NCBI GenBank assembly: GCA_041660605.1
Contig: JBAZWB010000003.1
Location: 18,680 to 82,679, forward strand
Direction of reading: 5' to 3'
DNA from: Patescibacteria group bacterium
GTDB taxonomy: Bacteria > Patescibacteriota > Patescibacteriia > UBA10025 > JAHIVO01
Length of the DNA: 64,000 nucleotides
The notes under the pieces are model-generated. The model saw nothing but the letters and a program-made list of their open reading frames with translations. It searched no databases and was not told the DNA's origin. The position numbers were made by a program, and so were the translations under genes. Numbering within the stretch: position 1 is the stretch's first letter; each line of letters starts with the position of its first letter. Below are positions 5,077 to 61,189 of this stretch, in pieces.

Positions 5077-6174
5077 ATGAACATAGCTTTCTACATTTCC
5101 GGACACGGTTACGGACACGCGACGCGGATGCTCGCCGTGATGAATGCTTTGCTGGAACGCGACCCGCACTGCCGTTTTTTTATCCGCACCGCCTCTCCGC
5201 GGAAATTATTCAATGGCCTGCCAGCCGGCATCGCGCGATATTCCCGGATGGCCATTGATACCGGCATGATTGAAAAGGATAATTTTTCCCAGGACCCGCT
5301 GGCCACGCTGCGGCATTACCAAAAAATCGAAGACAACCGGCAGCAGCTGATAAAAAACGAATCTGCCTTTATATTATCCCGGCAGGTCAAGGTAATCGTC
5401 AGCGACATTCCGCCTCTGGCTTCGGAAATCGGCTCTGCCTGCGGCATTCCCGTCATCGGCTGCGCGAACTTTTCCTGGGACTTCAATTATCAGCCTTACG
5501 CACGCCAGTACCCAAGGTATTCCCATTTAATAAAAAGCATCCGGGCTTCATATAGGAAGACGACTCTGCTGCTTCGCCTGCCATTCCACCACTCCATGGA
5601 CGCCTTTCCTGTCCAAAAGGATATTCCCCTGGTCGCCCGACAGTCGGCAGCCAGCCCCGTTAAAACGCGTCTCCGCCTGGGCATTTCAAAATCAGAAAAA
5701 AGGCCGGTAATTTTAGTCGCCTTCCGGATTGACGACCAGTTATTCCGCCGGGCGCTGGTGGAGCTTACGAAAAATAACGACTGCCTGATTATCACTTACG
5801 GCCTGCGCTCGTTGCGGAAATATAAAAATATTATAGTTATTAATGACAGTCGGAAAGCCGTGCCATACACCGATATTCTCCGGGCTTGCACGCTGGTTAT
5901 TGCCAAGATCGGGTACAGCACGCTGGCAGAGTGCATCGCCGCCAGGGTGCCGCTGATGTATCCTCCGCGCGAAAATTATCCGGAATTCAAGCTTCTACAT
6001 AATGGTGCAAAAAAAAGCCTGCCTTCATATCTTATGCCCAAACGGGATTTTGCCTCAGGCAAATGGCGCCGGCACATAGACAAATTCCTTGCTCAGCCGA
6101 TTTCATTTCCCTCGATGCCGGCTAACGGCGCCCGGGTCGCCGCTGAAATAATTTTGCGTCACGCTAGCAAATAA
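5077..6174 (+). CDS. GT-B fold glycosyltransferase (MJ1255/TIGR00661-like, GT28 C-terminal-like).
   Basis: N-terminus ISGHGYGHATR is characteristic of this family. About 365 aa. Higher GC than surroundings. Confidence 0.55.
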   Translation: MNIAFYISGHGYGHATRMLAVMNALLERDPHCRFFIRTASPRKLFNGLPAGIARYSRMAIDTGMIEKDNFSQDPLATLRHYQKIEDNRQQLIKNESAFILSRQVKVIVSDIPPLASEIGSACGIPVIGCANFSWDFNYQPYARQYPRYSHLIKSIRASYRKTTLLLRLPFHHSMDAFPVQKDIPLVARQSAASPVKTRLRLGISKSEKRPVILVAFRIDDQLFRRALVELTKNNDCLIITYGLRSLRKYKNIIVINDSRKAVPYTDILRACTLVIAKIGYSTLAECIAARVPLMYPPRENYPEFKLLHNGAKKSLPSYLMPKRDFASGKWRRHIDKFLAQPISFPSMPANGARVAAEIILRHASK

Positions 6175-6180
6175 AACCCC

Positions 6181-6240
6181 ATCGCGGGTCCCCGCCTGCC
6201 TTGCCAGTGCGGCGGGCAGGTCTGCGCCCGCGTTCGCGCC
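6181..6240. repeat. GC-rich structured repeat, copy A (CCCCGCCTGC ... TGCGGCGGGCAGGTCTGCGCCCGCG).
   Basis: The 25-nt core is identical to copy C at about 18125-18149. Hairpin GCGGGC/GCCCGC. Confidence 0.7.
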
Positions 6241-6288
6241 AATAAAACGCACACACACCGCAAAACGGGGCGGTTTTTACTGTAATAA

Positions 6289-6318
6289 AAACGGACAAGT
6301 ATTGAAACCTGTCCGCTG
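6289..6318 (-). terminator. Terminator for hutU on the minus strand.
   Basis: On the minus strand: CGGACAGG-tttcaatac-TTGTCCG followed by TTTTTATT. Confidence 0.45.
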
Positions 6319-6355
6319 TGTTTAGTAATGCTTTTGGGTTACTTAGGCGCAACCG

Positions 6356-8404
6356 TCAAGCAATAGATGCATCGACCGCTTTGCTGACGACATCGTCATC
6401 AGCGATAAAGGGAATCATAACCTGGAGTCTGGCGTCGTCATCCATGGATTCCGTAATGGCCCAGATGGCATTGGGATTTCCGGCCCACGCGCGGCGAGCC
6501 AGCCCGTTGTTCACGTCAATTGCCATCAGGCGCTTGATGCGTTCAGCCACCTCCACGGAACCATCCAGCGCGATGCCGAATCCGCCGTTAATAGCGTAAT
6601 TGAAGCCAACCCCGCCGCCGTTGTGTATGCTTACCCAGTCAGCGTGCGCAGTCGCGTCGCCAATGAAATTCTGCACTGACATGTCGGCGCACACGTTGCT
6701 GCCGTCCAGAACATTGGACGTTTCGCGGTACTTAGAATCAGTGCCGCCCACATCATGGTGATCCCTGCCGATCACCACCGGTCCGATCTCCCCGCTGGCA
6801 ACAGCCCGGTTGAAGGCGAGCGCAATGCGCGTCCGGCCGACACGGTCGCTATAGAGAATCCGCGCCTGACTACCGACGACAAGTCCGTATTTGCCGGCAT
6901 TTTCGATCCAGTAAAGATTGTCCTCATACTGCTGCCGTATCTGCAGAGGAGCTCTCACAAGCAACTCCCGGATAACGTCAGCGGCAATCTCGTCAGTCTT
7001 CTCGAGATCCTTAGGATCTCCGCTCAGGCACACCCAGCGGAACGGGCCGAAACCGAAGTCAAAGCAGATCGGTCCCATAAGATCCTCAACGTACGACGGA
7101 TACCTGAACCTGGTATCATCGGCCATGATATCGGCTCCCGCATTTCTTGCCTGGAGCAGGAAACCGTTGCCGTAGTCAAAGAATTTCGTCCCGCGTTCAG
7201 CCATGGCGTTGATGGCGCGAACGTGTTCCCGCAGTGATTCCCGGACAAGCTCCGTGAAACGTCCTGCATCGGACTTGATCATCTGGAGCGCATCCTCAAA
7301 GCTGATCTGGAACGGGAAATACCCGCCGGCGAACGGCAAGTTTAGAGAAGTCTGGTCAGACGCGAGATCAACCTGGATATCCTCAGTGATGAGGCGATTC
7401 CACAGATCAACGATGTTCCCATGGTACGCGATTGAGAGCGGCTGCTTTTCAGCAATCGCACTTTTCATGGCAAAGATTATGGCATCAAGGCTATCGGAAT
7501 ATGAATCAATCCAGCCTTTTTCAATGCGTTTCTTGATCGCCTTCAGATTCACCTCGGCGATGACGCAGACAATGCCTAGTATCTGCGCTGCCTTGCCCTG
7601 GGCGCCCGACATGCCGCCAAGCCCCGAGCTGACGAAAACTCGACCACGCAGATCCTTCATGTCCGTGATTCTGTAATACTCACGGAAGGCGTTGAGCAGT
7701 GTGATATAGGTGCCGTGCACGATTCCCTGCGACCCGATGTACATCGCGCTGCCTGCCGTCATTTGGCCGTACAGGGTCACGCCTTTCGCGGCGAGATTGT
7801 CATAGTCAGCTTCAAGCGGCGCAGACATAAGCCCGTTCACGATCACGGCGATCGGATCAAAACCTCTGCGCGCCGGGAACTTGCCGAGCGGATGGCCGGA
7901 ATACAGCTTAAGCATCTGATCACGGTCTAAGGTAGCGAGCGCCTGCATAGTGATCAGGTATTGCACCCAATTCTGGAACACGGTACCGGTACCGCCGTAA
8001 GTGACCAGTTCGTCCGGGTACTGCGCGTTCTGCGGATCAAGGTTGTTCATATACATGAGCTGCAGGGCGCGTGCCGCCAGCGTATTACCGGGGTACCAGT
8101 CGATCGGATACGCCATGATGGGATACGCCGGTTTGAACCGGTACATGTAGATGCGTCCGAAAACTCTCAGTTCGGTCGCAAACTCAGAAGCGAGAATCGC
8201 GTGCCACTCCTTGGGAAAATAACGGAGCGCATTTTTGACCGCCTGTTTTTTCTCCTTGGTTGTCAGGGTGTTTGGCCGGGCAGGTGCATGGATAGCGTTC
8301 ATGTCGTACACCGGCGTCGGTGGAAGCTCACGCGGAATTCCTGCAAGGATAGCTGTTCTCAGCCTATTCTTGTCCATTGCTTGTGCCATCTGATTTTCCT
8401 CCAT
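6356..8404 (-). CDS. hutU: Urocanate hydratase (urocanase), long form of about 680 aa.
   Basis: Full-length match to urocanase: MTAGS-x-YIGSQGIVHGTY, SSGLGGMSGAQ and GGGVGF NAD-binding motifs. About 50% GC against a ~40% background. Confidence 0.9.
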   Translation of the reverse strand: MEENQMAQAMDKNRLRTAILAGIPRELPPTPVYDMNAIHAPARPNTLTTKEKKQAVKNALRYFPKEWHAILASEFATELRVFGRIYMYRFKPAYPIMAYPIDWYPGNTLAARALQLMYMNNLDPQNAQYPDELVTYGGTGTVFQNWVQYLITMQALATLDRDQMLKLYSGHPLGKFPARRGFDPIAVIVNGLMSAPLEADYDNLAAKGVTLYGQMTAGSAMYIGSQGIVHGTYITLLNAFREYYRITDMKDLRGRVFVSSGLGGMSGAQGKAAQILGIVCVIAEVNLKAIKKRIEKGWIDSYSDSLDAIIFAMKSAIAEKQPLSIAYHGNIVDLWNRLITEDIQVDLASDQTSLNLPFAGGYFPFQISFEDALQMIKSDAGRFTELVRESLREHVRAINAMAERGTKFFDYGNGFLLQARNAGADIMADDTRFRYPSYVEDLMGPICFDFGFGPFRWVCLSGDPKDLEKTDEIAADVIRELLVRAPLQIRQQYEDNLYWIENAGKYGLVVGSQARILYSDRVGRTRIALAFNRAVASGEIGPVVIGRDHHDVGGTDSKYRETSNVLDGSNVCADMSVQNFIGDATAHADWVSIHNGGGVGFNYAINGGFGIALDGSVEVAERIKRLMAIDVNNGLARRAWAGNPNAIWAITESMDDDARLQVMIPFIADDDVVSKAVDASIA

Positions 8405-8539
8405 TAGTTCTATGGCTACTGGTTTAAGTTTGTTTTCGATGCAAAAATATTATGATGTAAAGAGCAAAATATCTGACTAGCTTAATATAATAGACCAAGC
8501 TTGTCAAGAAAAGAATAAGGAAGGAACGCCGTTACCCCA

Positions 8540-8612
8540 TCCCCCGAACGCGGGTGCCGCGCCCGACTGCTTCGCACTCGAAGCGGGCGGGTCTCCGCCC
8601 GCGTTCGCGCTT
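8540..8612. repeat. GC-rich structured repeat, copy B.
   Basis: GCGGGCGG-GTCT-CCGCCCGC is a perfect 8-bp hairpin. The tail GTTCGCGC is shared with copy A. Confidence 0.6.
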
Positions 8613-8787
8613 GTTTTAACGCGCCAACGAGGGTAATATTAAATTAAAGGAGATAAATTACTGTAGTCAAACGCTGGAAGTTTAAAGAAAAAAGTATGGT
8701 TATAAGTATTAAGTTTATAAAACATTTTAATCTTCAACTTACTTCCATTCCTTCTTCCATCAACATTAAATTTATAACAACACGCCA

Positions 8788-9039
8788 ATGTACTTCCTCT
8801 ACATCCTGAAATGCAAAGATAAAAGCCTGTACACGGGCATTACCACGGACTTGGTGCGTCGGCTGACAGAACATAGCACCACGGCTCTCGGGGCAAAATA
8901 TACCAGAGCCAGGCGGCCGGTGAAGCTGGTTTACAAAAAAAGATTCCGTACCCGGTCAGCCGCCGGGCGGGAGGAAGCGAGGATTAAAAGTCTGCCGCGG
9001 CCGGAAAAATTAAAATTAATTCAAAAGGTAAGGAGGTAA
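8788..9039 (+). CDS. GIY-YIG domain nuclease-like protein (UPF0213 family).
   Basis: YFLYILKCKDKSLYTGITTDLVRRLTEH matches the GIY-YIG signature. Confidence 0.7.
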   Translation: MYFLYILKCKDKSLYTGITTDLVRRLTEHSTTALGAKYTRARRPVKLVYKKRFRTRSAAGREEARIKSLPRPEKLKLIQKVRR

Positions 9040-11549: not shown

Positions 11550-12764
11550 TTATTGTGATGCTGGCGTATTATTTGCTGGCGCAGCAAGACAGCAGGGATG
11601 ATTTGGGTATTTTTTGCAACTTATGTTAGTGCAGTTGTTTGGAGTAGAGTTGCAATTCAACGGTTGCGTAAGAAATAAATCGCTATAAGCTTTACCATTC
11701 GTATCATAGAACTGGACAAACCAGCCATGCGCATCAATCGTGCGGGCCGGCATGCATAAGCTTTTTAAACCATTCGGGGTCTGGACTGATAAATTAAAAC
11801 GGGCATAGGCAGTAGGTGTATCTTCATTATTTGCACCAAGTACAAAAAGCGGACTGCCGTGGTCTATCAGGTCAACTGTACCCCCTGATTGCCATCCGAG
11901 AACAGGATTATAATAGCCATACACCGTGTTCCAGCTTTTTGCCAGGGTAAAATTTATTTGATCAGGCAGGCTGACTTGCCCGGCCAGCGTAACTCCCGAG
12001 ATTTCCGTGGGAGAGTAATTCTTGGCCACCAAAGTTTGGCAATCAGCAGCCGACACTCGCTGGGTCAGATCTTCATCCCAATAAGCATTCCCGTTTATAT
12101 CAAAATAATAATAAGTATATGCGGGCGGTTCTGAGTTTGTATTCTGGTTTGTATTTGTATCCGCTTGCGCCTGAGCCGCGTGTATCAGGCCGAATAGCTT
12201 CGAGTCGCTGGATTGAAAGCTCAGGGGATTAGCGGTGGCTTTTTCCGGAATACAGATAACTTTCCTTTCACCGGTAATAACCTGGGCACTGGCTTTTTTA
12301 ATCAACTCAATTCTCGAGGTTTGATTGGAGGCCGGCAATGATCCGCTATAGCGCAGGGTAATGAACATGGCGGGATGTATGGTGGAATCTATTGCAACTT
12401 TTAATCTCCAGGGATTGGTATAAGTCTGGCCATCCTGAAATTCAGGCTGTGAAGTTGAAAATTTCCCAAAATATGCATCCTCGCCAATACTTGCGCCACC
12501 CGGTAAACCATAAAATTTTACTTCGGTAAAGCTCTCGCTGGTTGAGGAGTGGTCAATAGTCCAATCAGCAAAAGAAATATCTCCCAGCGTAAAATAATTA
12601 GTAGACTGCACGGTGTTTTGGGACTGGGTACTGGCTGGCTGGCTAATTAGCACGCTAGCAAAGAACATGCCGGCAAAAAAACCGCTTATAACTCCGGTTA
12701 TAATAAAAACTGCCGTGGCTGTACGAGTATTAGTCAATACCTCGGTCTTAACTTTTGTCTCCAT
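11550..12764 (-). CDS. Secreted or membrane-anchored hypothetical protein with a Cys-rich C-terminus.
   Basis: N-terminal TM/signal anchor. The C-terminus reads CNSTPNNCTNISCKKYPNHPCC. Confidence 0.45.
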   Translation of the reverse strand: METKVKTEVLTNTRTATAVFIITGVISGFFAGMFFASVLISQPASTQSQNTVQSTNYFTLGDISFADWTIDHSSTSESFTEVKFYGLPGGASIGEDAYFGKFSTSQPEFQDGQTYTNPWRLKVAIDSTIHPAMFITLRYSGSLPASNQTSRIELIKKASAQVITGERKVICIPEKATANPLSFQSSDSKLFGLIHAAQAQADTNTNQNTNSEPPAYTYYYFDINGNAYWDEDLTQRVSAADCQTLVAKNYSPTEISGVTLAGQVSLPDQINFTLAKSWNTVYGYYNPVLGWQSGGTVDLIDHGSPLFVLGANNEDTPTAYARFNLSVQTPNGLKSLCMPARTIDAHGWFVQFYDTNGKAYSDLFLTQPLNCNSTPNNCTNISCKKYPNHPCCLAAPANNTPASQ

Positions 12765-12972
12765 TTTTTTGTATTTTAATTATAATTTTTATTTTATCTA
12801 ATATTAGCCTTATTATATCACAATTTTCATCAAAAGTCAACTAAACAAGCATAGATATTATATATTTGAATTAACCTTCCCTGACGGCAATTAATTTTAA
12901 TCCACAAAACCAAATAAAAAACCTCTGCCGTTGCCAGCAAAGGTTTATTTGTTCATGCGCTCAGCGTGGTTA

Positions 12973-13662
12973 TCATGCCGCCTGAACTAAGAAATAGCTA
13001 TGAATCGGCGAGTTGAAGCACTCCCCGACTTCGACAAGCTTAAGAGCTGTCCGGTTATCTTCGTTAGCTCCGGTACTGGGAATAAGCAAACCGTATCTGG
13101 TTTCCACTCCGGTGTCCATGGCGGCCACGTTCGCCTTAACCGGTAGCAAAGGATCGATTGCCACCACAGCAAGAAGATGAAAAATACTGCAGTGGATAAG
13201 GCCCTTACTCTCCAAATGCGTTTCAAGCGCCTGTAGATTGCGAAAGCCCTTGGTGCTGACTAATTGGGTTCTTGAATGGACCGTACCGCACTTATCGTTT
13301 GAGAAAAGCGCCGAAGTGATATTTTTATTTACGGTATAGAAACGGCAAGGCGCAAGCATTTCCTCAACGGTCGCGTGCGTATCAAACAGGACCGAATAGC
13401 TGGCGCTCGATAGGGCATCCGTTAACCCTTGTTCGCGTAATTCCAGGGCGAGCTGAGCAATACCTTCCCATTCGCTTGGCAAACCTAAACGTTCAGATTC
13501 CTCTTTCAGGGCGATCAAAAGATCGATGAACTGAGGATATTTTGCGATCTCAGGTTGACTCCTTAGCCACCGAATGTACGGGTCGTCATTATACTTGGAT
13601 ACCAATTTTTCCTTCCTTTCGAAAATTAAATGAACATACTCTTTAACACAATAAAATATCAT
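12973..13662 (-). CDS. Hypothetical cytoplasmic protein (compositional outlier).
   Basis: 229-aa ORF with noticeably higher GC than its flanks. No motif recognised. Confidence 0.4.
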   Translation of the reverse strand: MIFYCVKEYVHLIFERKEKLVSKYNDDPYIRWLRSQPEIAKYPQFIDLLIALKEESERLGLPSEWEGIAQLALELREQGLTDALSSASYSVLFDTHATVEEMLAPCRFYTVNKNITSALFSNDKCGTVHSRTQLVSTKGFRNLQALETHLESKGLIHCSIFHLLAVVAIDPLLPVKANVAAMDTGVETRYGLLIPSTGANEDNRTALKLVEVGECFNSPIHSYFLVQAA

Positions 13663-13771
13663 AACGGGAACACATTGTCAAGCCCTCTATATAATAAATA
13701 CCTTGTTTTAAGCCGCCAGTGAGGGTAGTATTTAATTACAGAAGATAAATTATTAACCGCCAAATAGCCCT

Positions 13772-14842
13772 ATGAAAAAATCAACTTACATAATTATCGC
13801 CGTTGTCTTTGTCCTGCTGGTCGCTGCCGGTTTTCTGCGTTTCGTGGTCGGCGGAGACGAAGATACGTGGTTATGCGATAACGGACAATGGGCCAAGCAC
13901 GGGGATCCCTCCGCGAGCAAACCAACCAGCGGGTGCGGAAACACTAACTCAACCGCGGTTAATTCCGATGCCGCTAAAACATCATGCTCCATAAATAGCG
14001 ATTGCAAACTCCGCATCTGCACCGGCTGCTTCAACAAAGAATATCTTAAAACCGCGCCGGCGGATCTGGCCTGCCGGACTTACGAAGGCAGAACCTGTGT
14101 CTGTACAAATAATGTCTGCACCGTGGCACCAACCAGCGCAACAAATACTAATAACGCAGTGAATAATGCCAGTAATACAAATAGTAATATTAATGTCCAG
14201 AAATCCGATGAAAACTCTGCAGTTTCAGCTAATGGCATTCGAGTCGAGGTAATTAACGGTACTAAATTTTGTAGTATTGAAAATAATCCAGAATTTGGTT
14301 ATCAAAAAATCTTAAAAGCCATTTACCAGGATGGAAAAGAAAAAACTCTTTATACATCAAGCACAAAACTTAGTAGTGATAATAAAGATGCATGTCTATT
14401 TATTGAAGGTGTTTGTTGTCCACAGATATCACCCGACGGTAAATACGTTATTTTTGAAAAAACCGGCTGGGAGTGGAGCAAACCTTATATGCTCAATATT
14501 GAAACGGGGAAATATGTATTCGGCGATGAAAGCGACATATCAGTCATAACAGATATTGACTGGTCATCAGATAACAAAAATTTTGCCATCACCACCGACT
14601 CCAATGAATTTTTGGGTGAGGGAGCGGTGGAGGTGTATGTCAGCGCCTATAATAATCCGGAAATAATCAAGCGAGCTTGGACTGCGGAAAATTCAATAGT
14701 GACAGGAGTCACCGATGTACATTTCATCAGAAACGATGTAATTCAAATCACAATTGAACAGCAAAGCACGGAAAATGTAGCTCAAAAAACTCTTAACTAC
14801 GAATACAATTATCATACTAATTTACTTACGCCGTTACCATAA
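13772..14842 (+). CDS. Secreted protein with a Cys-rich N-terminal module and PD40/TolB-like beta-propeller repeats.
   Basis: Signal peptide, multiple Cys, and ISPDGKYVIF-type repeat. Confidence 0.45.
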   Translation: MKKSTYIIIAVVFVLLVAAGFLRFVVGGDEDTWLCDNGQWAKHGDPSASKPTSGCGNTNSTAVNSDAAKTSCSINSDCKLRICTGCFNKEYLKTAPADLACRTYEGRTCVCTNNVCTVAPTSATNTNNAVNNASNTNSNINVQKSDENSAVSANGIRVEVINGTKFCSIENNPEFGYQKILKAIYQDGKEKTLYTSSTKLSSDNKDACLFIEGVCCPQISPDGKYVIFEKTGWEWSKPYMLNIETGKYVFGDESDISVITDIDWSSDNKNFAITTDSNEFLGEGAVEVYVSAYNNPEIIKRAWTAENSIVTGVTDVHFIRNDVIQITIEQQSTENVAQKTLNYEYNYHTNLLTPLP

Positions 14843-14909
14843 AAGACACTCATGAAACCAGCCATTAAAAAACTGCTGCGTAAAAGTTAAGGCAAAATAA
14901 TAATAAACT

Positions 14910-15467
14910 ATGAGCGAATTACTCTATATTGTTGACGAAGATGATCAGATCGTCGGCCAGGCAAAACGCGAAGATATACATAAACAAGGATTTCGGCATC
15001 GCGAAGTCGGAGTGTGGATATATAATGACAAAGGCGAAGTGCTGCTGCAACGGCGCGCACCCGACAAGGACATTGCTCCCAATCTGCTTGATACGTCTGC
15101 CGGCGGCCATGTCGGCATCAGAGAGTCTTATGAAGAGGCGGCACTCAAAGAATTGAAAGAAGAGACTGGCATTACTGCAAAACCTGAGGAGCTCGTCTTC
15201 ATCGTTAAAGATAAACGGTTCAGTGGGCCGCAGCCCAATGGGTTGCTTAATAGAACAGTACGTAAACTCTTCGCGTATCGCTTCAAACCAGACACTGATC
15301 ATTTGCGCCTGGAGCAGGGGAAAATTTCCAGCCTGGAATGGCGTCCCATGGAAAAACTGGGTCAGCTTACCGATGAAGAAAAAAAAGAGTTTTCCAATTT
15401 CGTGATACTCGACATTCCTATAATATATACGGCCATTAAAAAACTGCCACAAAAACATCATATATGA
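14910..15467 (+). CDS. NUDIX hydrolase.
   Basis: Nudix box GGHVGIRESYEEAALKELKEETGI. Confidence 0.8.
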   Translation: MSELLYIVDEDDQIVGQAKREDIHKQGFRHREVGVWIYNDKGEVLLQRRAPDKDIAPNLLDTSAGGHVGIRESYEEAALKELKEETGITAKPEELVFIVKDKRFSGPQPNGLLNRTVRKLFAYRFKPDTDHLRLEQGKISSLEWRPMEKLGQLTDEEKKEFSNFVILDIPIIYTAIKKLPQKHHI

Positions 15468-15943
15468 AAACGACTATCTTTTACTTTTCTAAATTTGGCG
15501 CGACCAAGCAGTATGCCGAATGGATTGCGGAAGCCGTCCCGGGCACCAAGCTGGTTGATGCGTTTAATGAAGCCCCCGACCCGTCCCCGTATGACGCAAT
15601 TATCATTGCCACCCGCGCCTATATGGGCCGTATCGCCGCCGTATCTTATCTCAAAAGCAATTGGAAAACACTGAAAGACAAAAAAATGTATCTCCTCGTC
15701 GTCGGCATGTCTCCGCCAGAGGCGGAGGACAGTCAGCGGCAATATTATAATATTCCCATAAAAATCCGCAAAAAAATATTAGGGTACAGCAAGGTTCCTG
15801 GCGCGATTGATCTAGATAAACTCAGCCCTATCCGCAGAAAATTAGTCCAGATATTTTCCCAAAAAGTGCCAGTCAGCAAAAATATGGTGGCCAAAGAGTA
15901 TATCACGCCGGTTGTGGAGTGGATGAAGAAACAAGTTGTTTAA
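15464..15943 (+). CDS. Flavodoxin-like domain protein.
   Basis: IFYFSKFGATKQYAEWIAE flavodoxin-type N-terminus. The start overlaps the upstream stop (ATGA). Confidence 0.45.
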   Translation: MKTTIFYFSKFGATKQYAEWIAEAVPGTKLVDAFNEAPDPSPYDAIIIATRAYMGRIAAVSYLKSNWKTLKDKKMYLLVVGMSPPEAEDSQRQYYNIPIKIRKKILGYSKVPGAIDLDKLSPIRRKLVQIFSQKVPVSKNMVAKEYITPVVEWMKKQVV

Positions 15944-15960
15944 AATGAGGTAAAAAAAAT

Positions 15961-15992
15961 CACCTTCCTCGGAAATGGAAGGTGTTTTGTTA
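15961..15992 (+). terminator. Rho-independent terminator.
   Basis: CACCTTCC-tcggaaat-GGAAGGTG followed by TTTTGTT. Confidence 0.65.
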
Positions 15993-16057
15993 TGACACAA
16001 AGGAGAATTTATCAGGAGGAATATCAATTTTTTATCACCTGGTATTTAATACTCTCC

Positions 16058-16122
16058 CACCGCACCCCGCTGTGGGTGCGGTGCGCTCCAAAATGGGAAG
16101 CGCGGGCGCAGCGGCCCGCGCT
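16058..16122. repeat. GC-rich structured repeat, copy D.
   Basis: Two perfect hairpins: CACCGCACCC/GGGTGCGGTG and GCGCGGGC-gcagcg-GCCCGCGC. Confidence 0.55.
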
Positions 16123-16623
16123 ATTTAGGTGATTACGGGGTATTTAAAAGTATACCAGAAAACGAAACCAATTCGTGCAAGCTGATTGGAGAGAAATAAA
16201 TTATTAGACAATATCAGAACCCCATGTGCATATCAGCCCTTGACAAAAAGGCCGTTTTGGAATATACTATCCTGTTACTTTAGTAATACTCAAAATTCTG
16301 CCTAAATTTCGGCTGAAGAGAGAGCAGCCGGAAAGCCAGATATTTAGCCTTTACCCGCCGCTCTCTTTCAGAGGGCAGTTTTTTCTGATTTTACAGCTAA
16401 TGCAATTTCAGACCTAAACGTAGAATCCGTCGTAGTCCGTCACAGGCGGACGAAGGCGGATAAATGTATGCTTGTTTGGCTGTTGCCGGCAATTACCTTG
16501 CTGATAGCAGCCAGATTGGCAAAAAAACATTAACAAAACACTGTATGCTGGGACGGTCAAAAACCGCCAGTCTGGTAGTCCAAAACAGCAACAGTGAAAC
16601 AATTTATTACGGAGGTTTGTGTA

Positions 16624-17886
16624 ATGAAACACAAACTAGCATTACTCGTCATGGTCGCCCTGGCATTCTTTGCCACCGGCGCCGGCTCACAGTACGTCGC
16701 GGCAGTGCCCACGCCTGCGGACAGTTCCTATTTGGAACAGTTCGTGGGAAAGCCTTACAGCGTGAACCAATCACGTGTTTGGCTAGACATCTGTGCGTTG
16801 AATCGGGACAGGTTTCCGGACTCTAACAAGGTACAGCCCGGCGATACCATCCGCATGCCGTTGGGGAAAACCTACGTGGCGCAGTCTGGAGCCGCTGACC
16901 ACATGTGGACAGCATCAGTATCATTTATGGGATCAGAAGTGATGCCATATTTGATGGGTTTTTGGTCGTATACTCATGCGGCGAAGCCGGACACACAGCC
17001 CAACGCGCCAAAAACTACCACCACGGTAGTTCAGGCAACCAATTACGGTTGGTGGTGCTGGCAAATAGTTGGTCTGATTATCGTCGGTGGTATCATTATC
17101 GCCATCCTACTGCTGAATAGAAATCGCAAGCGGAATGAAGAGTCAGCGAAAAGTGCTAGTGAACAACTGGAACGCAACCGTCGGTTCGTGCCTGATCCGC
17201 CTGACTTCGAACACAGCCAAGAACGCGTTGTCGCCGCCCATGCGGAGGACGCACTCCGGCGTACACTCGGACCTAACTTCAAGAGAGTTGGTCCAGTAGT
17301 GAAGGGTAAGGCTAACGGAACCCTCACAGCGATAAATGCCGACGGTACCACTCAGACGCAGCAGTTCAACGATGAGCTGGCATATGCAATGGACGTCGAG
17401 GGACCGGATGGCACTCGTTTCAGACTTTTCTGTCGGTGGGGGTGTTTCAATCTAGTCGCTGGTAGCGTCGGCGCTTCATTCGTCGGCACATTCAGCCCAA
17501 TTGACGGTAGCACCCCGATGATAGTTCCTGCCATGACTTCTGAACTAATCGATAAGATCACTCAGAAAGTCAGGGGCGATGACATCGAACTTAGCGCAGC
17601 TGAGTTCCCTGGCGCTGTCACGGCAGAAGTCACGCCGACTATCGTTACTCCGGTAAAGACCGCTGCTGACGCCATAGTTACGGATAAGCCTAAATCTGAC
17701 GGGATCATGCGCTTCACCAAAGTGCAGCTTTCAGCAGAGAAGGGCATTAACTTGGAGGGGGATGATATCTGCCTTTCAGTTGACCAACTGTTTGAGCTAG
17801 TTTATCAGGTAACTGGGAGGCTTCCAAAAGAAGTAAAGCAGGCCAAGGACGCCACCGCGTCAGATCCTGCCCATCCTGACGATTAA
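16624..17886 (+). CDS. Signal-peptide protein with a LysM-like extracellular segment, a central TM helix and a long cytoplasmic tail.
   Basis: SD GGAGG 7 nt upstream of the ATG at 16624 (the GTG at 16594 is less likely). QPGDTIRMPLGKTY is LysM-like. About 55% GC. Confidence 0.5.
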   Translation: MKHKLALLVMVALAFFATGAGSQYVAAVPTPADSSYLEQFVGKPYSVNQSRVWLDICALNRDRFPDSNKVQPGDTIRMPLGKTYVAQSGAADHMWTASVSFMGSEVMPYLMGFWSYTHAAKPDTQPNAPKTTTTVVQATNYGWWCWQIVGLIIVGGIIIAILLLNRNRKRNEESAKSASEQLERNRRFVPDPPDFEHSQERVVAAHAEDALRRTLGPNFKRVGPVVKGKANGTLTAINADGTTQTQQFNDELAYAMDVEGPDGTRFRLFCRWGCFNLVAGSVGASFVGTFSPIDGSTPMIVPAMTSELIDKITQKVRGDDIELSAAEFPGAVTAEVTPTIVTPVKTAADAIVTDKPKSDGIMRFTKVQLSAEKGINLEGDDICLSVDQLFELVYQVTGRLPKEVKQAKDATASDPAHPDD

Positions 17887-17959
17887 TGCGAACTAGCTTG
17901 CGATCCAAGGATCGTAAGCATTGCACGCCATCCCAATAGGGGTGGAGCAAATCTCCTTT

Positions 17960-18012
17960 GGCCGTCTGCGTTGAGTGCTCTATGCATTTAACCAGACGGC
18001 CATTTTTATTTA
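17960..18012 (+). terminator. Rho-independent terminator.
   Basis: GGCCGTCTG..CAGACGGCC is a 9-bp stem followed by ATTTTTATTT. Confidence 0.55.
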
Positions 18013-18094
18013 TAGCTGGTATGCGGAGTGCTTAAACAATGCGCGGGCAAAGGACACGCGTTTGGGGGTTGTGAAACGCCGTCATACACCCTTG

Positions 18095-18150
18095 CCCAGA
18101 GCGGATCCCCGCCTGCGGAAGCCATGCGGCGGGCAGGTCTGCGCCCGCGA
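18095..18150. repeat. GC-rich structured repeat, copy C.
   Basis: CCCCGCCTGC plus the 25-nt core TGCGGCGGGCAGGTCTGCGCCCGCG, identical to copy A. Confidence 0.7.
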
Positions 18151-18235
18151 TGGGTCCATCCAATATAATATTAACGTCTTGTTTTAACATGGAAACAAAG
18201 GTAAAATTCTTATATATTAAACGATAAAAAAAATT

Positions 18236-18721
18236 ATGGAAAACTACAACCCCAAAACCGACTGCTGTCCGCGCTTTGACCCCAATCCGTGGGACGGAAA
18301 AACATTTGACTGGCAGGATAAGAAATTCATCAAAGACAAAGTATTTACCGCCTTTAACATCCCGATGAATTTCGGACAGGTGGTTAAGCGGATGAACGCC
18401 AAGATTGACGCGGCCGGAGCAAAAGCGCTGGACTGGATGTCGCTCTCCGACCATACTTCCAAATGGAATATGGACCTGTATATCGCCGTTGACAAAGAAG
18501 TGCCGGGCGCGGAGAATGTCACCTTGAGCGGGAAATACCTTAGCAAAGTGTACGAAGGCGATTTCCGGGAAACCGGCAAGTGGTGCCAGGATTTTATGGA
18601 GTACGCAAAACAGCAGGGTTACACTGACGTCAAGAAATGGTACATGTGGTACACCACCTGCCCCAAGTGCGCCAAGAAGTACGGGAAGAATTACGTGGTG
18701 ATAATTTCAAAAGTAAATTAA
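18236..18721 (+). CDS. Hypothetical protein, first gene of a four-gene run.
   Basis: ORF only. Conserved Cys and Trp residues but no assignable family. Confidence 0.45.
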   Translation: MENYNPKTDCCPRFDPNPWDGKTFDWQDKKFIKDKVFTAFNIPMNFGQVVKRMNAKIDAAGAKALDWMSLSDHTSKWNMDLYIAVDKEVPGAENVTLSGKYLSKVYEGDFRETGKWCQDFMEYAKQQGYTDVKKWYMWYTTCPKCAKKYGKNYVVIISKVN

Positions 18722-18727
18722 AAACAT

Positions 18728-18910
18728 ATGCTGGATGTAAAAGTTACAAAACATAGCGGAGAAGCGGTTTACTGCCTGGGGATCATCGGCGCGGCGATTT
18801 ATTACATATCTATAGCCACGGGTTTTTGGGCAGTGGTCCTGGGATTACTGAAGGCAATCGTCTGGCCGGTATTTTTTGTTTATGAGGCTTTGAAATTTTT
18901 TGGTAGCTAA
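18728..18910 (+). CDS. Small membrane protein (2 TM helices).
   Basis: 60-aa hydrophobic ORF, tightly spaced within the operon. Confidence 0.35.
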   Translation: MLDVKVTKHSGEAVYCLGIIGAAIYYISIATGFWAVVLGLLKAIVWPVFFVYEALKFFGS

Positions 18911-18914
18911 TACA

Positions 18915-19358
18915 ATGAACTCTATCACTTTGAAGGGCTTATGGATAATCGAAGCGTCCCGCGACAAGATTTATGCCATCATGTCCGATTTTGAGAATAT
19001 GCCCAAACTCTTCCCAAAAGTAGCGAAGTCGCTGAAGGTTATCAAGCGTGAAGGGAACCACCTGACTATTGACGGTGTGGCCAAGACCTGGGGCAAAACC
19101 ATCAATGTGCGTATGAATACCGAGCTCAAGCCGCCATACGGGTATTTTTCTGATAATAAAAACAATATCGGCACTGCGGGGCACGAAGAATTCATGATGG
19201 AAGAAATCCCCCAAGGCACGCGCATAAATTATTTATACCAGGTGGAAATTAAAAATCCCCTGCTGCGCGCCCTGGCCAAGCCGCTAATCGGCTGGTACGC
19301 CATGCGGGTCTGGAAAAAAGCGGTTATTGATGTGCTGCGGCAAATGCTGGAGAAATAA
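18915..19358 (+). CDS. SRPBCC (START/Bet v1-like) family protein.
   Basis: Fold-family resemblance only. The ATG at 18915 is preferred over the TTG at 18900. Confidence 0.4.
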   Translation: MNSITLKGLWIIEASRDKIYAIMSDFENMPKLFPKVAKSLKVIKREGNHLTIDGVAKTWGKTINVRMNTELKPPYGYFSDNKNNIGTAGHEEFMMEEIPQGTRINYLYQVEIKNPLLRALAKPLIGWYAMRVWKKAVIDVLRQMLEK

Positions 19359-19371
19359 AAATAATTATTTT

Positions 19372-19812
19372 ATGCTTCTGACTAAAAAACTCATCGCCCC
19401 CTGCGGCATGAACTGCGCCCTGTGCGCCGCCTATCTGCGGGAAAAAAAGAAGTGTCCGGGATGCCGGGATGATGATACAGATAAGAATAAAAGTTGCAGA
19501 CGCTGCAGGATCAAAAACTGCCTCCAGCTGAAAAAAAACCGCTGGCAATATTGTTACCGGTGCGGCGCTTTCCCCTGTGACAAGATCAAGCATATCGACC
19601 AGCGTTATCGTGCTCACTACCACATGAGCATGGTGGCTAACCTTGCCTACACCAAAAAACGTGGCATTAAGGCCTTCCTCGCTGACCAGCAAAAAAAATG
19701 GCAGTGCCGGAAATGCGGCGGGCTTATCTGCTGCCACAACGGCTTGTGCTTCCACTGCGATGCCAAGAAGTTGAAAGCCAAAAAACGGAAATACCGCTGG
19801 GAGGGAGAATAA
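19372..19812 (+). CDS. DUF3795-like Cys-rich protein.
   Basis: APCGMNCALCAAY..CPGC pattern. ATG at 19372. Confidence 0.45.
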   Translation: MLLTKKLIAPCGMNCALCAAYLREKKKCPGCRDDDTDKNKSCRRCRIKNCLQLKKNRWQYCYRCGAFPCDKIKHIDQRYRAHYHMSMVANLAYTKKRGIKAFLADQQKKWQCRKCGGLICCHNGLCFHCDAKKLKAKKRKYRWEGE

Positions 19813-20907: not shown

Positions 20908-21124
20908 ATTGGCGTAACAAGATTAAGCTTCATCCGATTAAGTAATTGCATGGCTGTAAAATTAGCCTGTTTTAAATTGCTAATATCATATAAAAAAGGC
21001 TATATTATGCGAATTGAGCTTAAAAATAATTCACTGGCAATTATCTAATACTAGCCTACTAATTAACAGCGGAAACGGTAAGGAACCATTCTCCGTTTTT
21101 TTACTGTTTACCCAGCAAATAATT

Positions 21125-22381
21125 ATGAAACGAATAAAATCAATACTATCAAATATCCGCCCGCTTTCGGATAAAGTGCTGGAGCTGACTTTAGTCAGGA
21201 AAAACGGCGCGCCTTTTCCCGAATTCCTGCCCGGGCAATTCGCCACCATTTGCTTCCCCGCCCACTCCCCGCTGAAAGGCGAGCGGTGCTTTTCCATCGC
21301 CAGCTCATCTACCGACCGCCTGGCTATGAAATTCGGCATCCGGATTTCCGGCGCCTACACCAGCGCCCTGCGCGATCTGAAGCCGGGAGACCAGGCGCTA
21401 GTCGGAGGCCCATATGGGCGTTTTACTTTTGATCCCGTACGCGACCGCTCCCTCGTCTTTCTGGCCGGCGGCATCGGTATCACGCCATTTATCAGCATGA
21501 TAAAAACCGCGGCCGACCTTAATCTGGATAACGACCTGACTCTTTTTTACAGTCTCCGCTCCCTTTCGGACATGCCTTATGGCGCGGAACTGGAACGGCT
21601 GAGTAATATGTACCCGCGGTTCCGCGCGGTTTACGCTGTTTCTGATAAAAATATTCCCAAACATCTGCCTGAATATCATCCCGGCCGCCTGAACCGCGAA
21701 TTAATCGTAAAAGTTATGACTGACAGGATCTGGCGGAGCACTTTTTTTCTCTGCGGTCCGCCGCCTTTCATGAAAACAATGAACCAGACTCTGCTCTCGC
21801 TGGGAGTCGCGCCGGAATTTATTATGAGCGAAAAATTCGGAGCCGGATCCAAGGCTTTTATTGAGCGGGGCACCCGGGTGCCGGCTTTTGCCTTTGCCGG
21901 ATGGGGCATTGCCTCGGTCATTGCCTTGGGAATCTTTTTCAGTATTGAGCAATCAAAACGACTGTCACTGGCCTATCATCCGCCAGAGCAACTAAGCCCG
22001 GTAGTGCGGAATATCCCCACGGAAATAGCCGTACCTGGACAGCCAAATCCGCCGGCAACGGAAACAGCCGAAGTGCCGCAGCCAACCGCCATGCCAACTG
22101 CTGAAAATAATAACAAACCAGCGACCCAAACCAGCGCGCCCAAACCCGCGCCAGCGCAAAAAACGGCCACGCCCGTGCCCCAGGCAAAAACTGCCGCGCC
22201 AATAAACGTCAATAAGGCAGCTCCGGCACCCGCTCCTGCGTCTGCGCCAGTTACGCCCCCTCCTGCACCAGTAAACACTGCGCCAGCCGCAACTCCGGCA
22301 CCAACGCCGGCTCCCAAACCAACTCCCGCTCCAGCTCCCGCGCCTGCACCGGCTCCTGCCCCTCGCACAGCAGTTTCCTAA
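21125..22381 (+). CDS. FNR-type FAD/NAD(P)-binding oxidoreductase with a C-terminal TM anchor and an extracytoplasmic Pro/Ala/Thr-rich repeat tail.
   Basis: RCFSIASS (the RxYS FAD motif), GGIGITPF (NAD-binding), CGPPPFM (C-terminal FNR motif). These are followed by a TM helix and (PA)n/PAPT repeats. Confidence 0.65.
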   Translation: MKRIKSILSNIRPLSDKVLELTLVRKNGAPFPEFLPGQFATICFPAHSPLKGERCFSIASSSTDRLAMKFGIRISGAYTSALRDLKPGDQALVGGPYGRFTFDPVRDRSLVFLAGGIGITPFISMIKTAADLNLDNDLTLFYSLRSLSDMPYGAELERLSNMYPRFRAVYAVSDKNIPKHLPEYHPGRLNRELIVKVMTDRIWRSTFFLCGPPPFMKTMNQTLLSLGVAPEFIMSEKFGAGSKAFIERGTRVPAFAFAGWGIASVIALGIFFSIEQSKRLSLAYHPPEQLSPVVRNIPTEIAVPGQPNPPATETAEVPQPTAMPTAENNNKPATQTSAPKPAPAQKTATPVPQAKTAAPINVNKAAPAPAPASAPVTPPPAPVNTAPAATPAPTPAPKPTPAPAPAPAPAPAPRTAVS

Positions 22382-22412
22382 AATTATTTGCCTTAAATAT
22401 CCAAAACAACCC

Positions 22413-23456
22413 ATGAAAAAATATTATTTATTCTCCACATTAATTCTGATTTTTTTAACCGTTGTGCCAATTCGCGCTTTGGCAGAAACAGAAGAATCTG
22501 ATGCAGAGGAACAATCATCCCAGGCAATAAATAATGAATCTGACAGCCAACCCGCTCCTGATGTTAACGATTCAAATGAACCCGCGCCGGTAATTGCACC
22601 AACCCAAGAAACCGCACCTGCCCCCCTGCCAGCGACAAAGGTTGCCCCGCCAGTCCCTGCCAAACAACCAGCTGCCGTGCAAAAAAATAACAACAAAACC
22701 GCCGGTACCGTAAACACCAGCAAGCCCGCACCGGTAAAAGCCGCGCCTGCCCCTGCTTATTCTGCGACAGCCTATGCGACCGAACCAAACCCTGCGCCGG
22801 ATAAAGCGGCGACAGCGGGAATTACCACCATCGCCCTGGTACCTCATACTTTCAATCCCACCCAGATACAAAAACGCCTGACTGATTTCCCCTGGGCCTG
22901 GGTAACCACCCGGGCGGCCGCTACAGTCTCATTTATAATGCTGGCTTTGCTGACCATGACGGGTATTTCTCTGTCCACCGGGCTGCTTTATCGGATATTT
23001 TCGCCGGCTACAGGCTGGTCCGTCCACCGCGCTATCGGCTCCATCCTGCTGATTTCCGTGCTGGTGCATATTTTTTCCCTGCTCTTTGACCAATTCATCG
23101 GCATGAACCTGCTTGATATTCTCGTGCCATTTGCCTCTTCATATCAGCCATTACTAGTCTCATTGGGAATTGTTGGTTTTTATCTTCTGGCGCTGATCCT
23201 CGGTACCTCATTTTATAAAATGGCCACCAAGGCAAAATTCTGGCGGAGAATCCATTACCTCTCCTTCCCCATGTTCGCGCTGATTTTCATTCACAGTATT
23301 TTGCTCGGCACGGATAGCCACCAGCCCCTGATGCAGGCTCTATACTGGGGCTCGGCTGTGCTGGTTATGGGATTTGTTATTTACCGGATTGCCTGGAAAT
23401 TTTACCGTCCGGCAACCGACTATTCCTACCAAAAACGCGAAACAATTTTCGGTTGA
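22413..23456 (+). CDS. Ferric-reductase-like (NOX/FRE/MsrQ-type) bis-heme transmembrane domain protein with a signal peptide and an N-terminal Pro/Ala-rich region.
   Basis: Six TM helices. His pairs are spaced H-x13-H (HRAIGSILLISVLVH) and H-x12-H (HYLSFPMFALIFIH), as in the NOX/ferric-reductase heme ligands. Confidence 0.65.
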   Translation: MKKYYLFSTLILIFLTVVPIRALAETEESDAEEQSSQAINNESDSQPAPDVNDSNEPAPVIAPTQETAPAPLPATKVAPPVPAKQPAAVQKNNNKTAGTVNTSKPAPVKAAPAPAYSATAYATEPNPAPDKAATAGITTIALVPHTFNPTQIQKRLTDFPWAWVTTRAAATVSFIMLALLTMTGISLSTGLLYRIFSPATGWSVHRAIGSILLISVLVHIFSLLFDQFIGMNLLDILVPFASSYQPLLVSLGIVGFYLLALILGTSFYKMATKAKFWRRIHYLSFPMFALIFIHSILLGTDSHQPLMQALYWGSAVLVMGFVIYRIAWKFYRPATDYSYQKRETIFG

Positions 23457-24329: not shown

Positions 24330-25262
24330 ATGGACGTCATAGAAGTAAAAAATTTGGTAAAAAAGTTCAAACAACCCGATAAAAACGAGCTGATCGCCGT
24401 TAATGGCGTTTCTTTTTCCGTTAAAAAGAGCGAGATTTTTGGTCTGCTTGGCCCTAATGGCGCCGGCAAAACCACCACCCTGGAAATAATTGAAGGCCTG
24501 CAGGTACCCAGCGGAGGCGAGACACTTATCAAGGGATTTTCCACTCAGCACGACCTTCATAGAGTAAAAAATATTATCGGCATCCAGCTGCAATCCTCTG
24601 CCTATTATGAATACCTGCAGTTAGGCGAAATACTTGAACTCTTCGGTAGCTTCTATGATAAAGCTCTGCCGGCCGACAATCTATTGGAGATAGTCAGTCT
24701 TCAGGATAAGAAAAAATCCCTCATTAAACAACTTTCCGGCGGCCAGCAGCAGCGCTTTTCCATCTGCGCCGCGCTGGTCAATGACCCGGAAATCGTTTTC
24801 CTGGACGAGCCGACCACCGGCCTGGATCCGCAGGCTCGCCGGCTGATGTGGGAATTCATTAAAAAAATAAATAAGCAGGGCAAGACCGTAGTGCTGACCA
24901 CTCATTATATGGAAGAAGCACAATATTTATGCAACCGCATCGGCATCATGGATCTGGGAAAAATCATCGCCCTGGACACGCCAAAAAATATGATAAATAA
25001 ATTGTCTTCCTCGGCTCGGATACATTTCCAGCCCTACGGCGATCTCAAACGGGAAACATTAAAACAAGTTGAAGGCGTCCTGGAAATCAAAGAAAATTCC
25101 GATAATATTATTCACCTGAAAGTCACCAAGGGAAATGAAGTGCTGCCCAAACTGTATAAATGGGCTGAGACCAATAAAATTTTTATGATAGATCTGGAGG
25201 TTATTTCTGCTGATCTGGAAGACGTATTTTTATCCTTAACCGGGAAACAACTGAGGGAATAA
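24330..25262 (+). CDS. ABC transporter ATP-binding protein.
   Basis: Walker A GPNGAGKTT, signature LSGGQQQR, Walker B VFLDEPTTGLD. Confidence 0.9.
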   Translation: MDVIEVKNLVKKFKQPDKNELIAVNGVSFSVKKSEIFGLLGPNGAGKTTTLEIIEGLQVPSGGETLIKGFSTQHDLHRVKNIIGIQLQSSAYYEYLQLGEILELFGSFYDKALPADNLLEIVSLQDKKKSLIKQLSGGQQQRFSICAALVNDPEIVFLDEPTTGLDPQARRLMWEFIKKINKQGKTVVLTTHYMEEAQYLCNRIGIMDLGKIIALDTPKNMINKLSSSARIHFQPYGDLKRETLKQVEGVLEIKENSDNIIHLKVTKGNEVLPKLYKWAETNKIFMIDLEVISADLEDVFLSLTGKQLRE

Positions 25263-25319
25263 GTTTAAAAAATGTCTAATTAGAAATTAAACATTAGGAA
25301 TTAGAAATTATCAATTAAT

Positions 25320-32580: not shown

Positions 32581-32707
32581 GGCTAATTTTAGTGTTAGGC
32601 CAGCAAGCTGGCCACCTACCCTATCTAATATATGTAGGTGCAGAGCCCCGCCTGCTGCTCCTAGCGGAGCTATGGCGGGCAGGTTGCTCTGCTGGACAGT
32701 CATAGAC
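32581..32707. repeat. GC-rich structured repeat, copy E (about 127 bp), flanked by an 8-nt direct repeat ACCCGCGG.
   Basis: Contains the CCCCGCCTGC and GGCGGGCAGG motifs, the palindrome GGCCAGC-AA-GCTGGCC, CACCTAC..GTAGGTG and GCAGAGC..GCTCTGC. ACCCGCGG lies at about 32573 and again at about 32708. Confidence 0.55.
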
Positions 32708-44275: not shown

Positions 44276-44287
44276 AGCGAAAAAATA

Positions 44288-45418: not shown

Positions 45419-45458
45419 GCATTTTCTGATATAATAAAGTAGCAATTATAAAATAAAT

Positions 45459-46331: not shown

Positions 46332-46333
46332 TA

Positions 46334-47731: not shown

Positions 47732-47753
47732 AATATTAAGGGGGAGATGAAAT

Positions 47754-49409: not shown

Positions 49410-49425
49410 TAATTTTATATTATAT

Positions 49426-49806: not shown

Positions 49807-49812
49807 TAATAC

Positions 49813-49841
49813 TTGACAAAAAAAGATTTTTAGCCTATAAT
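49813..49841 (+). promoter_or_regulatory. Consensus sigma70 promoter (TTGACA, 17-nt spacer, TATAAT).
   Basis: Perfect hexamers with a 17-nt spacer, about 75 nt upstream of the 49916 gene. Confidence 0.6.
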
Positions 49842-49915
49842 AGCGGCATAACAATATTATTCATTTTAACAGTTAATTTATCAATAAAACTGTTTACTGA
49901 AAGGGGGTGAAATTA

Positions 49916-61184: not shown

Positions 61185-61189
61185 AATTT

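Follow-up and report, generated by a model that had tools for sequence, protein, structure and literature searches.

Urocanase (urocanate hydratase) carries out step two of histidine breakdown, the conversion of urocanate to 4-imidazolone-5-propionate, with a tightly bound NAD+ as electrophile, and the gene for its short form, hutU, classically sits in hutUHIG-type operons. Bacteria of the candidate phyla radiation (CPR) have a minimal metabolism and depend on a host, and the catabolic enzymes that they retain hint at what their surroundings supply. A 64-kb stretch of DNA from a Patescibacteria group bacterium (hereafter the window) carries a hutU gene with no other hut gene beside it, which raises the question of what this gene is and how it came to be there. 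An earlier annotation made from the DNA letters alone (the sequence-only reading) had placed it, together with a glycosyltransferase gene, in a GC-rich island at positions 5077-8630, bracketed by two repeat copies and acquired horizontally. The findings that follow lead us to favour, with a probability of about 0.58, another reading: hutU would be a functional long-form urocanase, gained horizontally long ago or passed between CPR lineages, and fast-evolving, the glycosyltransferase would be native, and the repeats would not be boundaries.

The open reading frame (ORF) at 6356-8404 on the minus strand encodes 682 aa from its upstream ATG and 677 aa from a second ATG at position 8389. The second ATG, used in the NCBI annotation, is the likely start because a Shine-Dalgarno motif, GGAGG (8398-8402, minus strand; read from the sequence), sits 8 nt upstream of it, and the gene is accordingly given here as 6356-8389. 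Its product (exact protein MFA6099075.1) matched three Pfam domains with near full profile coverage, namely Urocanase_N (E = 2.9e-34), the Rossmann domain Urocanase (2e-76) and Urocanase_C (8.8e-78). It scored 400.7 bits with the NCBIfam hutU equivalog TIGR01228, whose cutoff is 375; this small margin is expected for long forms. With the models of thiourocanate hydratase (NF058530) and S-methyl thiourocanate hydratase (NF058531) it reached 279.7 and 327.2 bits against cutoffs of 930 and 880, respectively, and it is a member of neither family. The best solved relative was the 681-aa urocanase of Trypanosoma cruzi (6UEK), which aligned end to end with 680 bits, whereas the 550-aa bacterial urocanases scored about 310-340 bits and aligned only from residue ~109. 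By homology, hutU is thus a real, intact gene for a predicted urocanate hydratase (EC 4.2.1.49), and by its length and alignment the protein belongs to the long-form subfamily (eukaryote/Fibrobacteres-Chlorobi-Bacteroidetes/archaeal type), whose members have 670-680 aa with N- and C-terminal extensions. The domains, the TIGR01228 score and the 6UEK match bear out the long-form urocanase of 682 aa that had been called at this position from the sequence.

Does the gene really stand alone? The search for partners covered 83.5 kb of the 185-kb contig, with the window and 10 kb beyond each end. Pfam scans were run on all window ORFs of at least 200 aa and on many smaller ones, precomputed Pfam assignments were used for the 10-kb flanks, and HutH, HutI and FtcD from archaeal and Bacteroidota hut clusters served as tblastn queries. 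Over this area, Pfam revealed no histidine ammonia-lyase, imidazolonepropionase-type amidohydrolase, arginase-fold or FGase-type hydrolase, or formiminotransferase, and the best tblastn match had E = 1. Remnants of hut genes were found beside hutU neither in the window nor at the locus of P0005, a HutU of the genome GCA_964594455.1 that is described below. The claim that hutH, hutI and hutG/hutF are missing from the window was therefore confirmed, and at the level of the locus hutU is a loner. Elsewhere, Poseidoniales, Asgard archaea and Roseivirga had the long-form hutU in one cluster with hutH, hutI and ftcD, and it was unlinked from these genes in Cloacimonadota, Rikenellaceae and several of the closest homologues, all from non-CPR genomes. 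As the long form is thus solitary in several other organisms, the absence of hut genes from the window is weak evidence for their absence from the genome. The literature that we searched contained nothing relevant on urocanase or HutH in Patescibacteria or other CPR bacteria.

The relatives of the protein suggest that it was not imported recently. Among its 120 best matches in a database of 5.8 billion clusters, the best non-self homologue of HutU was 59% identical. The named near matches belonged to Bacteroidales, Deltaproteobacteria, Fermentibacteria, Aegiribacteria, Cyclobacteriaceae and Flavobacteriales, all of them from other phyla, and the contexts of the nearest non-CPR sequences were those of metabolically complete diderm bacteria. 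The database also holds the proteome of a related Patescibacteria metagenome-assembled genome (MAG), GCA_041650135.1, and no HutU closer than 59% came from it among these 120 matches, which points to a patchy distribution of hutU within the lineage. In contrast to the named matches, the sister of the window protein in a neighbour-joining (NJ) distance tree of 143 sequences was P0005, in 97 of 100 bootstraps and with 56-57% identity. The two share 14 rare residues, compared with at most 8 that the window protein shares with any other sequence. The gene for P0005 is located on a contig of 199 kb in GCA_964594455.1. The helicase encoded beside it matches a Patescibacteria protein at 74% identity, and its homologues in Patescibacteria, Parcubacteria and Buchananbacteria number in the dozens; another gene beside this hutU (235 aa) is 40% identical to the window ORF at 29607-30389. 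Like the window gene, the P0005 gene is solitary (within ±8 kb).

The pair joined the tree on an internal branch of 0.028, between a clade of Asgard archaea and Cloacimonadota and a large mixed clade of bacterial, archaeal and eukaryotic sequences. The terminal branch of the window protein measured 0.30 against a median of 0.07, and its distances to Bacteroidota, Fermentibacteria and Poseidoniales were 0.63-0.72, compared with 0.42-0.55 among those groups. Altogether, the low identities, the long branch and the solitary sister in a second Patescibacteria MAG speak against a recent arrival of hutU from any sampled lineage, and no donor can be named. A scan of viral contigs for hutU gave no match, and a scan of genome contigs, in which the pattern-based sampling was biased, returned 26 long-form hutU loci, none of them from the source genome or from CPR. 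No tRNA gene was found nearby, nor any integrase or transposase domain within ±10 kb of hutU. Of the proposed acquisition, the horizontal part is supported by the loner status of the gene, its composition (see below), its patchy distribution and its near matches in other phyla; a recent date for it is not supported. As a separate observation, the P0005 contig carries, upstream of hutU (locus positions 7440-7880), a noncoding stretch of ~450 bp that has 53% GC in a genome of ~40% GC and ends in a terminator-like hairpin; it had neither an Rfam match nor any resemblance to hut genes or the loci that were compared.

No other gene of the window is as atypical as hutU in GC content and synonymous codon usage. 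Its GC content of 0.553 (z = 2.4) was the highest of the 63 window genes, and its GC content at third codon positions (GC3) was 0.662 (z = 2.0), an excess of +0.135. The length-corrected synonymous codon pattern gave z = 7.1 (next gene 4.5, median 1.1), with a preference for AAG, GAG, CAG, CCG, GTG and C-ending NNY codons (TTC, TAC, CAC, AAC, ATC). A principal component analysis (PCA) of relative synonymous codon usage was uninformative, placing hutU at z = 1.1 along the GC3 axis and at 1.9 along PC3. When HutU was recoded with the codon frequencies of the window, the predicted GC content was 0.508, so the amino acids account for about half of the excess and synonymous codon choice for the other half (+0.046, z = 1.8, rank 3). 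In 21 other genomes hutU was typically 0-0.05 richer in GC than its flanks, with little difference in GC3, which confirms a component intrinsic to the family. Moreover, native genes match or exceed hutU in GC3; the EamA gene at 27706, for instance, reaches 0.693, and its orthologue in GCA_041650135.1 is 75% identical. The outlier status proposed for this gene was therefore reproduced for GC and codon usage, whereas its GC3 lies in the native range and its GC content is not a strong mark of horizontal transfer. The P0005 gene is a stronger outlier in its own genome, with a GC3 of 0.556 against 0.372 ± 0.048 in the flanks (+0.18). The window contains a second GC-rich patch (0.50-0.54) at 21014-23456, with ferredoxin-reductase-like (FAD/NAD-binding) and ferric-reductase-like membrane genes, whose excess is driven by the amino acids (expected GC of 0.54 for the ferredoxin-reductase-like gene).

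The fact that both the closest tree neighbour and the window protein come from Patescibacteria, and that both genes have a GC3 excess that solitary hutU genes outside CPR lack, could also mean that hutU was ancestral in Patescibacteria, with vertical inheritance and loss from most lineages. The unusual composition of the gene would then reflect selection, for example for high expression; the C-ending NNY preference is a pattern often linked to expression, and the amino acids account for about half of the GC excess. This history is unlikely, given that only two CPR sequences were present among the 120 best matches of the 5.8-billion-cluster database, that a relative with syntenic genes of 50-75% identity contributed no hutU to the database matches, and that the placement of the pair, between the Asgard/Cloacimonadota clade and the mixed clade, does not mirror the bacterial phylogeny.

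We then asked whether the protein has kept the residues of a urocanase. Compared with the 142 other long- and short-form sequences of the 143-sequence alignment, window HutU retained 93 of the 97 columns that are invariant in all the others and 208 of the 224 columns that are at least 95% conserved. The corresponding 16 deviations, against a median of 1, made it the most deviant full-length sequence of the set. Unique changes were present at four universally invariant positions, H268N (in DQTSxH; Asn350 of the 677-aa product), P453K (in SPxRET), G482H and G497N in Pseudomonas putida numbering, and a further change replaced Arg with Ile at position 100. Three of the four lie near D443, R455 and G492 in the sequence. 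On the other hand, alignment with the P. putida enzyme (1UWL/1UWK) showed intact YGG, QMT, HGN, GPFRW, GRDH, RET and GGGVG motifs, and Q131, T133, Y274, R362, D443 and R455 were kept. The residues that we take to bind the substrate or act in catalysis in P. putida urocanase (Y52, T133, R362, D443 and R455) are all present. The presumed NAD+ set (GG 53-54, Q131, GLGGM, N243, QTSAH 264-268, Y274 and G492) is also kept, except for His268, whose replacement by Asn is unique among the 143 sequences. Residues 264-268, which presumably contact NAD according to the UniProt annotation, align to the DQTSxH motif in which this change occurs.

Four unique substitutions at columns invariant in 142 sequences, 16 deviations where the median is 1 and the lack of hut partners within 83.5 kb might together suggest a neofunctionalised homologue, with an NAD/substrate pocket remodelled for another imidazole-acrylate or for a non-catalytic role, and hence standing alone. 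We find this quite unlikely for a protein that passes the hutU equivalog cutoff, fails the models of the known paralogues and keeps all the mapped residues that presumably bind the substrate. Furthermore, P0005 is canonical at all four positions as well as at position 100, which makes lineage-specific drift at least as plausible as adaptation for the four changes. Fast evolution in CPR would be the simplest explanation for the odd substitutions.

The 677-codon frame of the gene is intact and identical across samples, and this argues for selection on hutU. We favour the reading in which hutU came into a CPR lineage in the distant past, or is passed around among such lineages, as an accessory gene that would belong to a deep and fast-evolving branch within the long forms and would since have been kept intact by selection. 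The cell would convert urocanate supplied by its host or community, and the later steps would depend on genes at other sites in the genome or take place outside the cell. Several points weigh against this reading. The sister pairing depends on a very short branch (0.028) and two branches of ~0.3, and long-branch attraction may have produced it. A long residence in CPR should have ameliorated the synonymous composition, yet both CPR genes keep their GC3 excess (+0.135 and +0.18). This would agree with more recent transfers; otherwise it calls for selection on codon usage, or for CPR donors that are richer in GC and have not been sampled. Finally, in addition to its four unique changes, window HutU deviates at 12 more of the columns with at least 95% conservation, and with so many changes an unaltered activity would not be guaranteed.

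The other gene of the proposed island encodes a GT-B-like glycosyltransferase (5077-6174, plus strand) with weak matches to Glyco_trans_1_3 and MJ1255, both below the cutoffs. It had been described as clearly richer in GC than the flanks, but its composition proved ordinary (GC z = 1.5, GC3 z = 1.2, rank 35 of 63 in codon usage). Among its named homologues, the best is 55% identical and comes from Patescibacteria, where it is encoded between the ABC-2 and VTT genes in GCA_041650135.1; in the window, the gene is 19 kb away from the ABC-2/VTT junction and adjoins hutU. The best two homologues (55% and 51%) were found in rearranged contexts. The sole other member of its 90% cluster, P0123, was the same protein with a later start, and a metagenome scan with the glycosyltransferase gave no match. 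Because it is ordinary by every measure and has a Patescibacteria homologue, the compositional island consists of hutU alone, and the glycosyltransferase is a native neighbour that was not part of the acquisition. GC content does peak in the window at region 5077-8630 (0.539, z = 3.25 relative to all segments of 3554 bp; the next independent peak reached 0.498), but hutU alone drives this excess and a two-gene island is not supported.

The repeats lead to a similar conclusion. A 21-nt core, GCGGGCRGGTCTSCGCCCGCG, occurs three times in the window against an expectation of 0, each time inside a GC-rich nested hairpin of ~80 nt. Copy A (6172-6250, plus strand; 88.9 bits with model R1) lies between the convergent glycosyltransferase and hutU genes, and its model match overlaps the glycosyltransferase stop codon (6172-6174). 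Copy B (8538-8621, plus strand; 83.8 bits, fold z = -3.4) lies between hutU and a divergent gene of the GIY-YIG nuclease family, and copy C (18089-18167, plus strand; 82.7 bits) is upstream of a GC3-rich Bact_hydrolase gene. A degenerate fourth member (32640-32692, plus strand; 13.9 bits, E = 0.27) has the inner arms CCCCGCCTGC...GGCGGGCAGGT in common with A and C. Copies A and B are 64% identical and copies A and C 78%. The consensus hairpin has 22 pairs, three of them with compensatory changes, as judged from only three sequences, and the structure is kept among the copies while the sequence of the inner stem differs. GC-rich patches are not rare between genes: 7 of the 32 intergenic regions of at least 60 nt contain a 40-nt patch in which GC reaches 70% or more, the intergenic mean being 38%, and so two such elements on either side of one gene are not improbable. 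Additional GC-rich hairpins in AT-rich intergenic DNA were seen at 16060-16125, 11217 and 20700. An Rfam search of the window, the repeat regions and the P0005 locus gave no match at the gathering threshold or with E of at most 1. The exact core had 38 matches in JGI metagenomes, which we attribute to chance because all of them were in contigs of 54-74% GC with no similarity in the flanks. A reading of the repeats as integron attC or other att sites was considered and dropped, as they have no GTTRRRY core and unequal arms, and no integrase was found.

A promoter-like module, TTGTTT-17 nt-TAATAT, directly follows copy B (8611-8639, plus strand) and would face the GIY-YIG gene. The same module, as TTGTTT-17 nt-TAAAAT, follows copy C (18179-18207) and faces its downstream gene, which suggests that hairpin and promoter may form a reused intergenic cassette. 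Based on their structure and distribution, the repeats are read as probable lineage-specific hairpins, either REP-like (repetitive extragenic palindromic) or acting as terminators or insulators, rather than as insertion scars. Right after copy C, positions 18236-19812 hold a run of small GC3-rich genes (0.61-0.67) encoding a Bact_hydrolase protein (PF20603, E = 7e-68), an SRPBCC/polyketide-cyclase-like protein and a DUF3795 protein, which may be another accessory block.

These data bear directly on the idea of a recently acquired two-gene island, glycosyltransferase plus hutU, bounded by repeats. The GC maximum at 5077-8630, the atypical codon usage of hutU and the presence of same-orientation repeats on both sides of that gene speak for such an insertion. 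However, copy A, being located between the two genes, would lie inside the island, so that A and B bracket hutU only; A and B are less alike than A and the distant C, and the hairpin family is dispersed. Together with the ordinary glycosyltransferase and its Patescibacteria orthologue, the lack of mobility genes or tRNA and the lack of any donor-like homologue above 59%, this makes a recent two-gene island very unlikely, and it is already largely refuted. The repeat family reported earlier thus exists, but its copies enclose hutU alone and do not mark the edges of an island. The case also carries a methodological caution, as a GC peak with flanking repeats mimicked a fresh island, while intrinsic composition, native high-GC3 genes and dispersed hairpins explain much of it.

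The surroundings of hutU are consistent with a transcription unit of its own. A terminator-like hairpin of 11 pairs, followed by the T-run TTTATTACAG, lies at 6290-6317 on the minus strand, 39 nt past the hutU stop codon, and a second hairpin with a T-run at 6257-6283 on the plus strand, downstream of copy A, would serve the glycosyltransferase transcript. Terminators had been placed on both sides of copy A, but both of these sites lie between copy A and hutU. Upstream of hutU, a candidate promoter has a perfect TTGACA -35-like hexamer (8502-8507, minus strand) and, after 17 nt, a weak -10 element, TAAGCT; a consensus promoter scan did not report it. On the other side of copy B is the small GIY-YIG nuclease-family gene (8788-9039, plus strand; precomputed PF01541 and NCBI name). 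Since hutU has its own Shine-Dalgarno motif and terminator, a convergent glycosyltransferase and a divergent GIY-YIG neighbour, it is predicted to be monocistronic.

Could hutU simply belong to another organism? It is compositionally distinct, and a Logan contig from SRR6484324 ends at window position 8589, inside the 21-nt core of copy B; a mis-binned or chimeric contig might look like this. A multi-copy element in that sample would also be expected to cause a break at that point. Contigs from SRR6484324, SRR18595301 and ERZ27249449 were 100% identical to the hutU region and together cross both hutU junctions, as do, with the same identity, the independent SRR18595301 assembly and the 185-kb ENA/NCBI contig by themselves. 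The exact protein, MFA6099075.1, is labelled 'Patescibacteria group bacterium' at NCBI and is encoded on this contig of 184,930 bp, of which the window covers roughly positions 102,252-166,251. Genes on both flanks are Patescibacteria-like and syntenic, at 50-75% identity, with GCA_041650135.1; they comprise an ABC transporter pair and genes for EamA, VTT, NTP-transferase, solute-binding, type IV secretion system (T4SS)-pilin and DUF2079 proteins, and the T4SS-pilin and DUF2079 genes are also typical of that relative. Because of the identical assemblies from several samples and the synteny with another Patescibacteria MAG, mis-binning or chimerism is unlikely, and an artefact of this kind strikes us as highly improbable. 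One contig of the GCA_041650135.1 population came from a landfill leachate well.

Other features of the locus are recorded here as observations. When window positions 24330-26417 and 43652-53971 are compared with GCA_041650135.1, the synteny is interrupted, as the window has ~17 kb of additional genes separating the ABC-2 permease gene from the VTT gene. Tandem paralogues of 129 and 128 aa, with no Pfam family, are encoded at 1242-1631 and 1680-2066 and have a 104-nt stretch that is 73% identical. A glycogen/starch block spans window positions 60102-63901 and positions 12756-18442 of the right-flank locus, with genes for a GH15 (glycoside hydrolase family 15) protein, two starch synthases, two GH57 proteins and a GalP-UDP-transferase-like protein, and would be compatible with a storage-polysaccharide lifestyle of this CPR organism. 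Inside this block, about 0.9-1.3 kb past the window end (right-flank locus 12264-12617), there is a gene with bAvd/23S_rRNA_IVP domains; bAvd-type proteins are accessory proteins typical of diversity-generating retroelements.

What is known here is the long-form urocanase family, and what is unusual is its host, a Patescibacteria genome. Two divergent CPR genomes each keep an intact, solitary and compositionally distinct hutU, the window copy with odd substitutions near its cofactor and substrate motifs. This would point to urocanate, which commonly arises when neighbouring cells break down histidine, as an exchanged metabolite, or else to a novel role for the urocanase fold. It is conceivable, though on balance doubtful, that the solitary long-form urocanases of Patescibacteria form a small clade apart and act outside the canonical four-step histidine pathway, either on urocanate or a related imidazole-acrylate supplied by the host or, in the window lineage, with a new activity gained through an NAD/substrate pocket remodelled by H268N, P453K, G482H and G497N.

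Among characterised systems, the closest counterpart is the T. cruzi enzyme, with residues 9-670 of window HutU aligned to residues 6-674 of 6UEK. Both have an N-terminal extension of roughly 100 aa and a C-terminal tail, and both carry ARILY in place of the cysteine motif ARICW of the short forms. The T. cruzi protein, however, is canonical where window HutU has its H to N, P to K, G to H and G to N changes, and the window protein is bacterial, from a CPR genome, and lies outside any known pathway context. The short enzymes of P. putida and Geobacillus (1UWK, 1UWL and 1X87) have the same three-domain fold family, and their NAD and substrate motifs align with those of window HutU, but they do not have the N- and C-terminal extensions, and the operon partners of the short form have no equivalent within 83.5 kb of the window gene. 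The proteins of the Poseidoniales, Asgard and Roseivirga hut clusters belong to the same subfamily (49-55% identity to window HutU); in those clusters a HutH lyase, a HutI amidohydrolase and a formiminotransferase adjoin hutU, in contrast to the window and P0005 loci. Thiourocanate and S-methyl thiourocanate hydratases (7NED and 8Q9U) have a homologous fold and exemplify paralogues recruited to other imidazole-acrylates, and window HutU falls far below the cutoffs of both models. As for the repeats, they resemble REP-type and other intergenic palindromic elements in being short, GC-rich, imperfect palindromes, intergenic and in several copies with a conserved structure. They differ in having only 3-4 copies in 84 kb, no Rfam match and no associated transposase in view.

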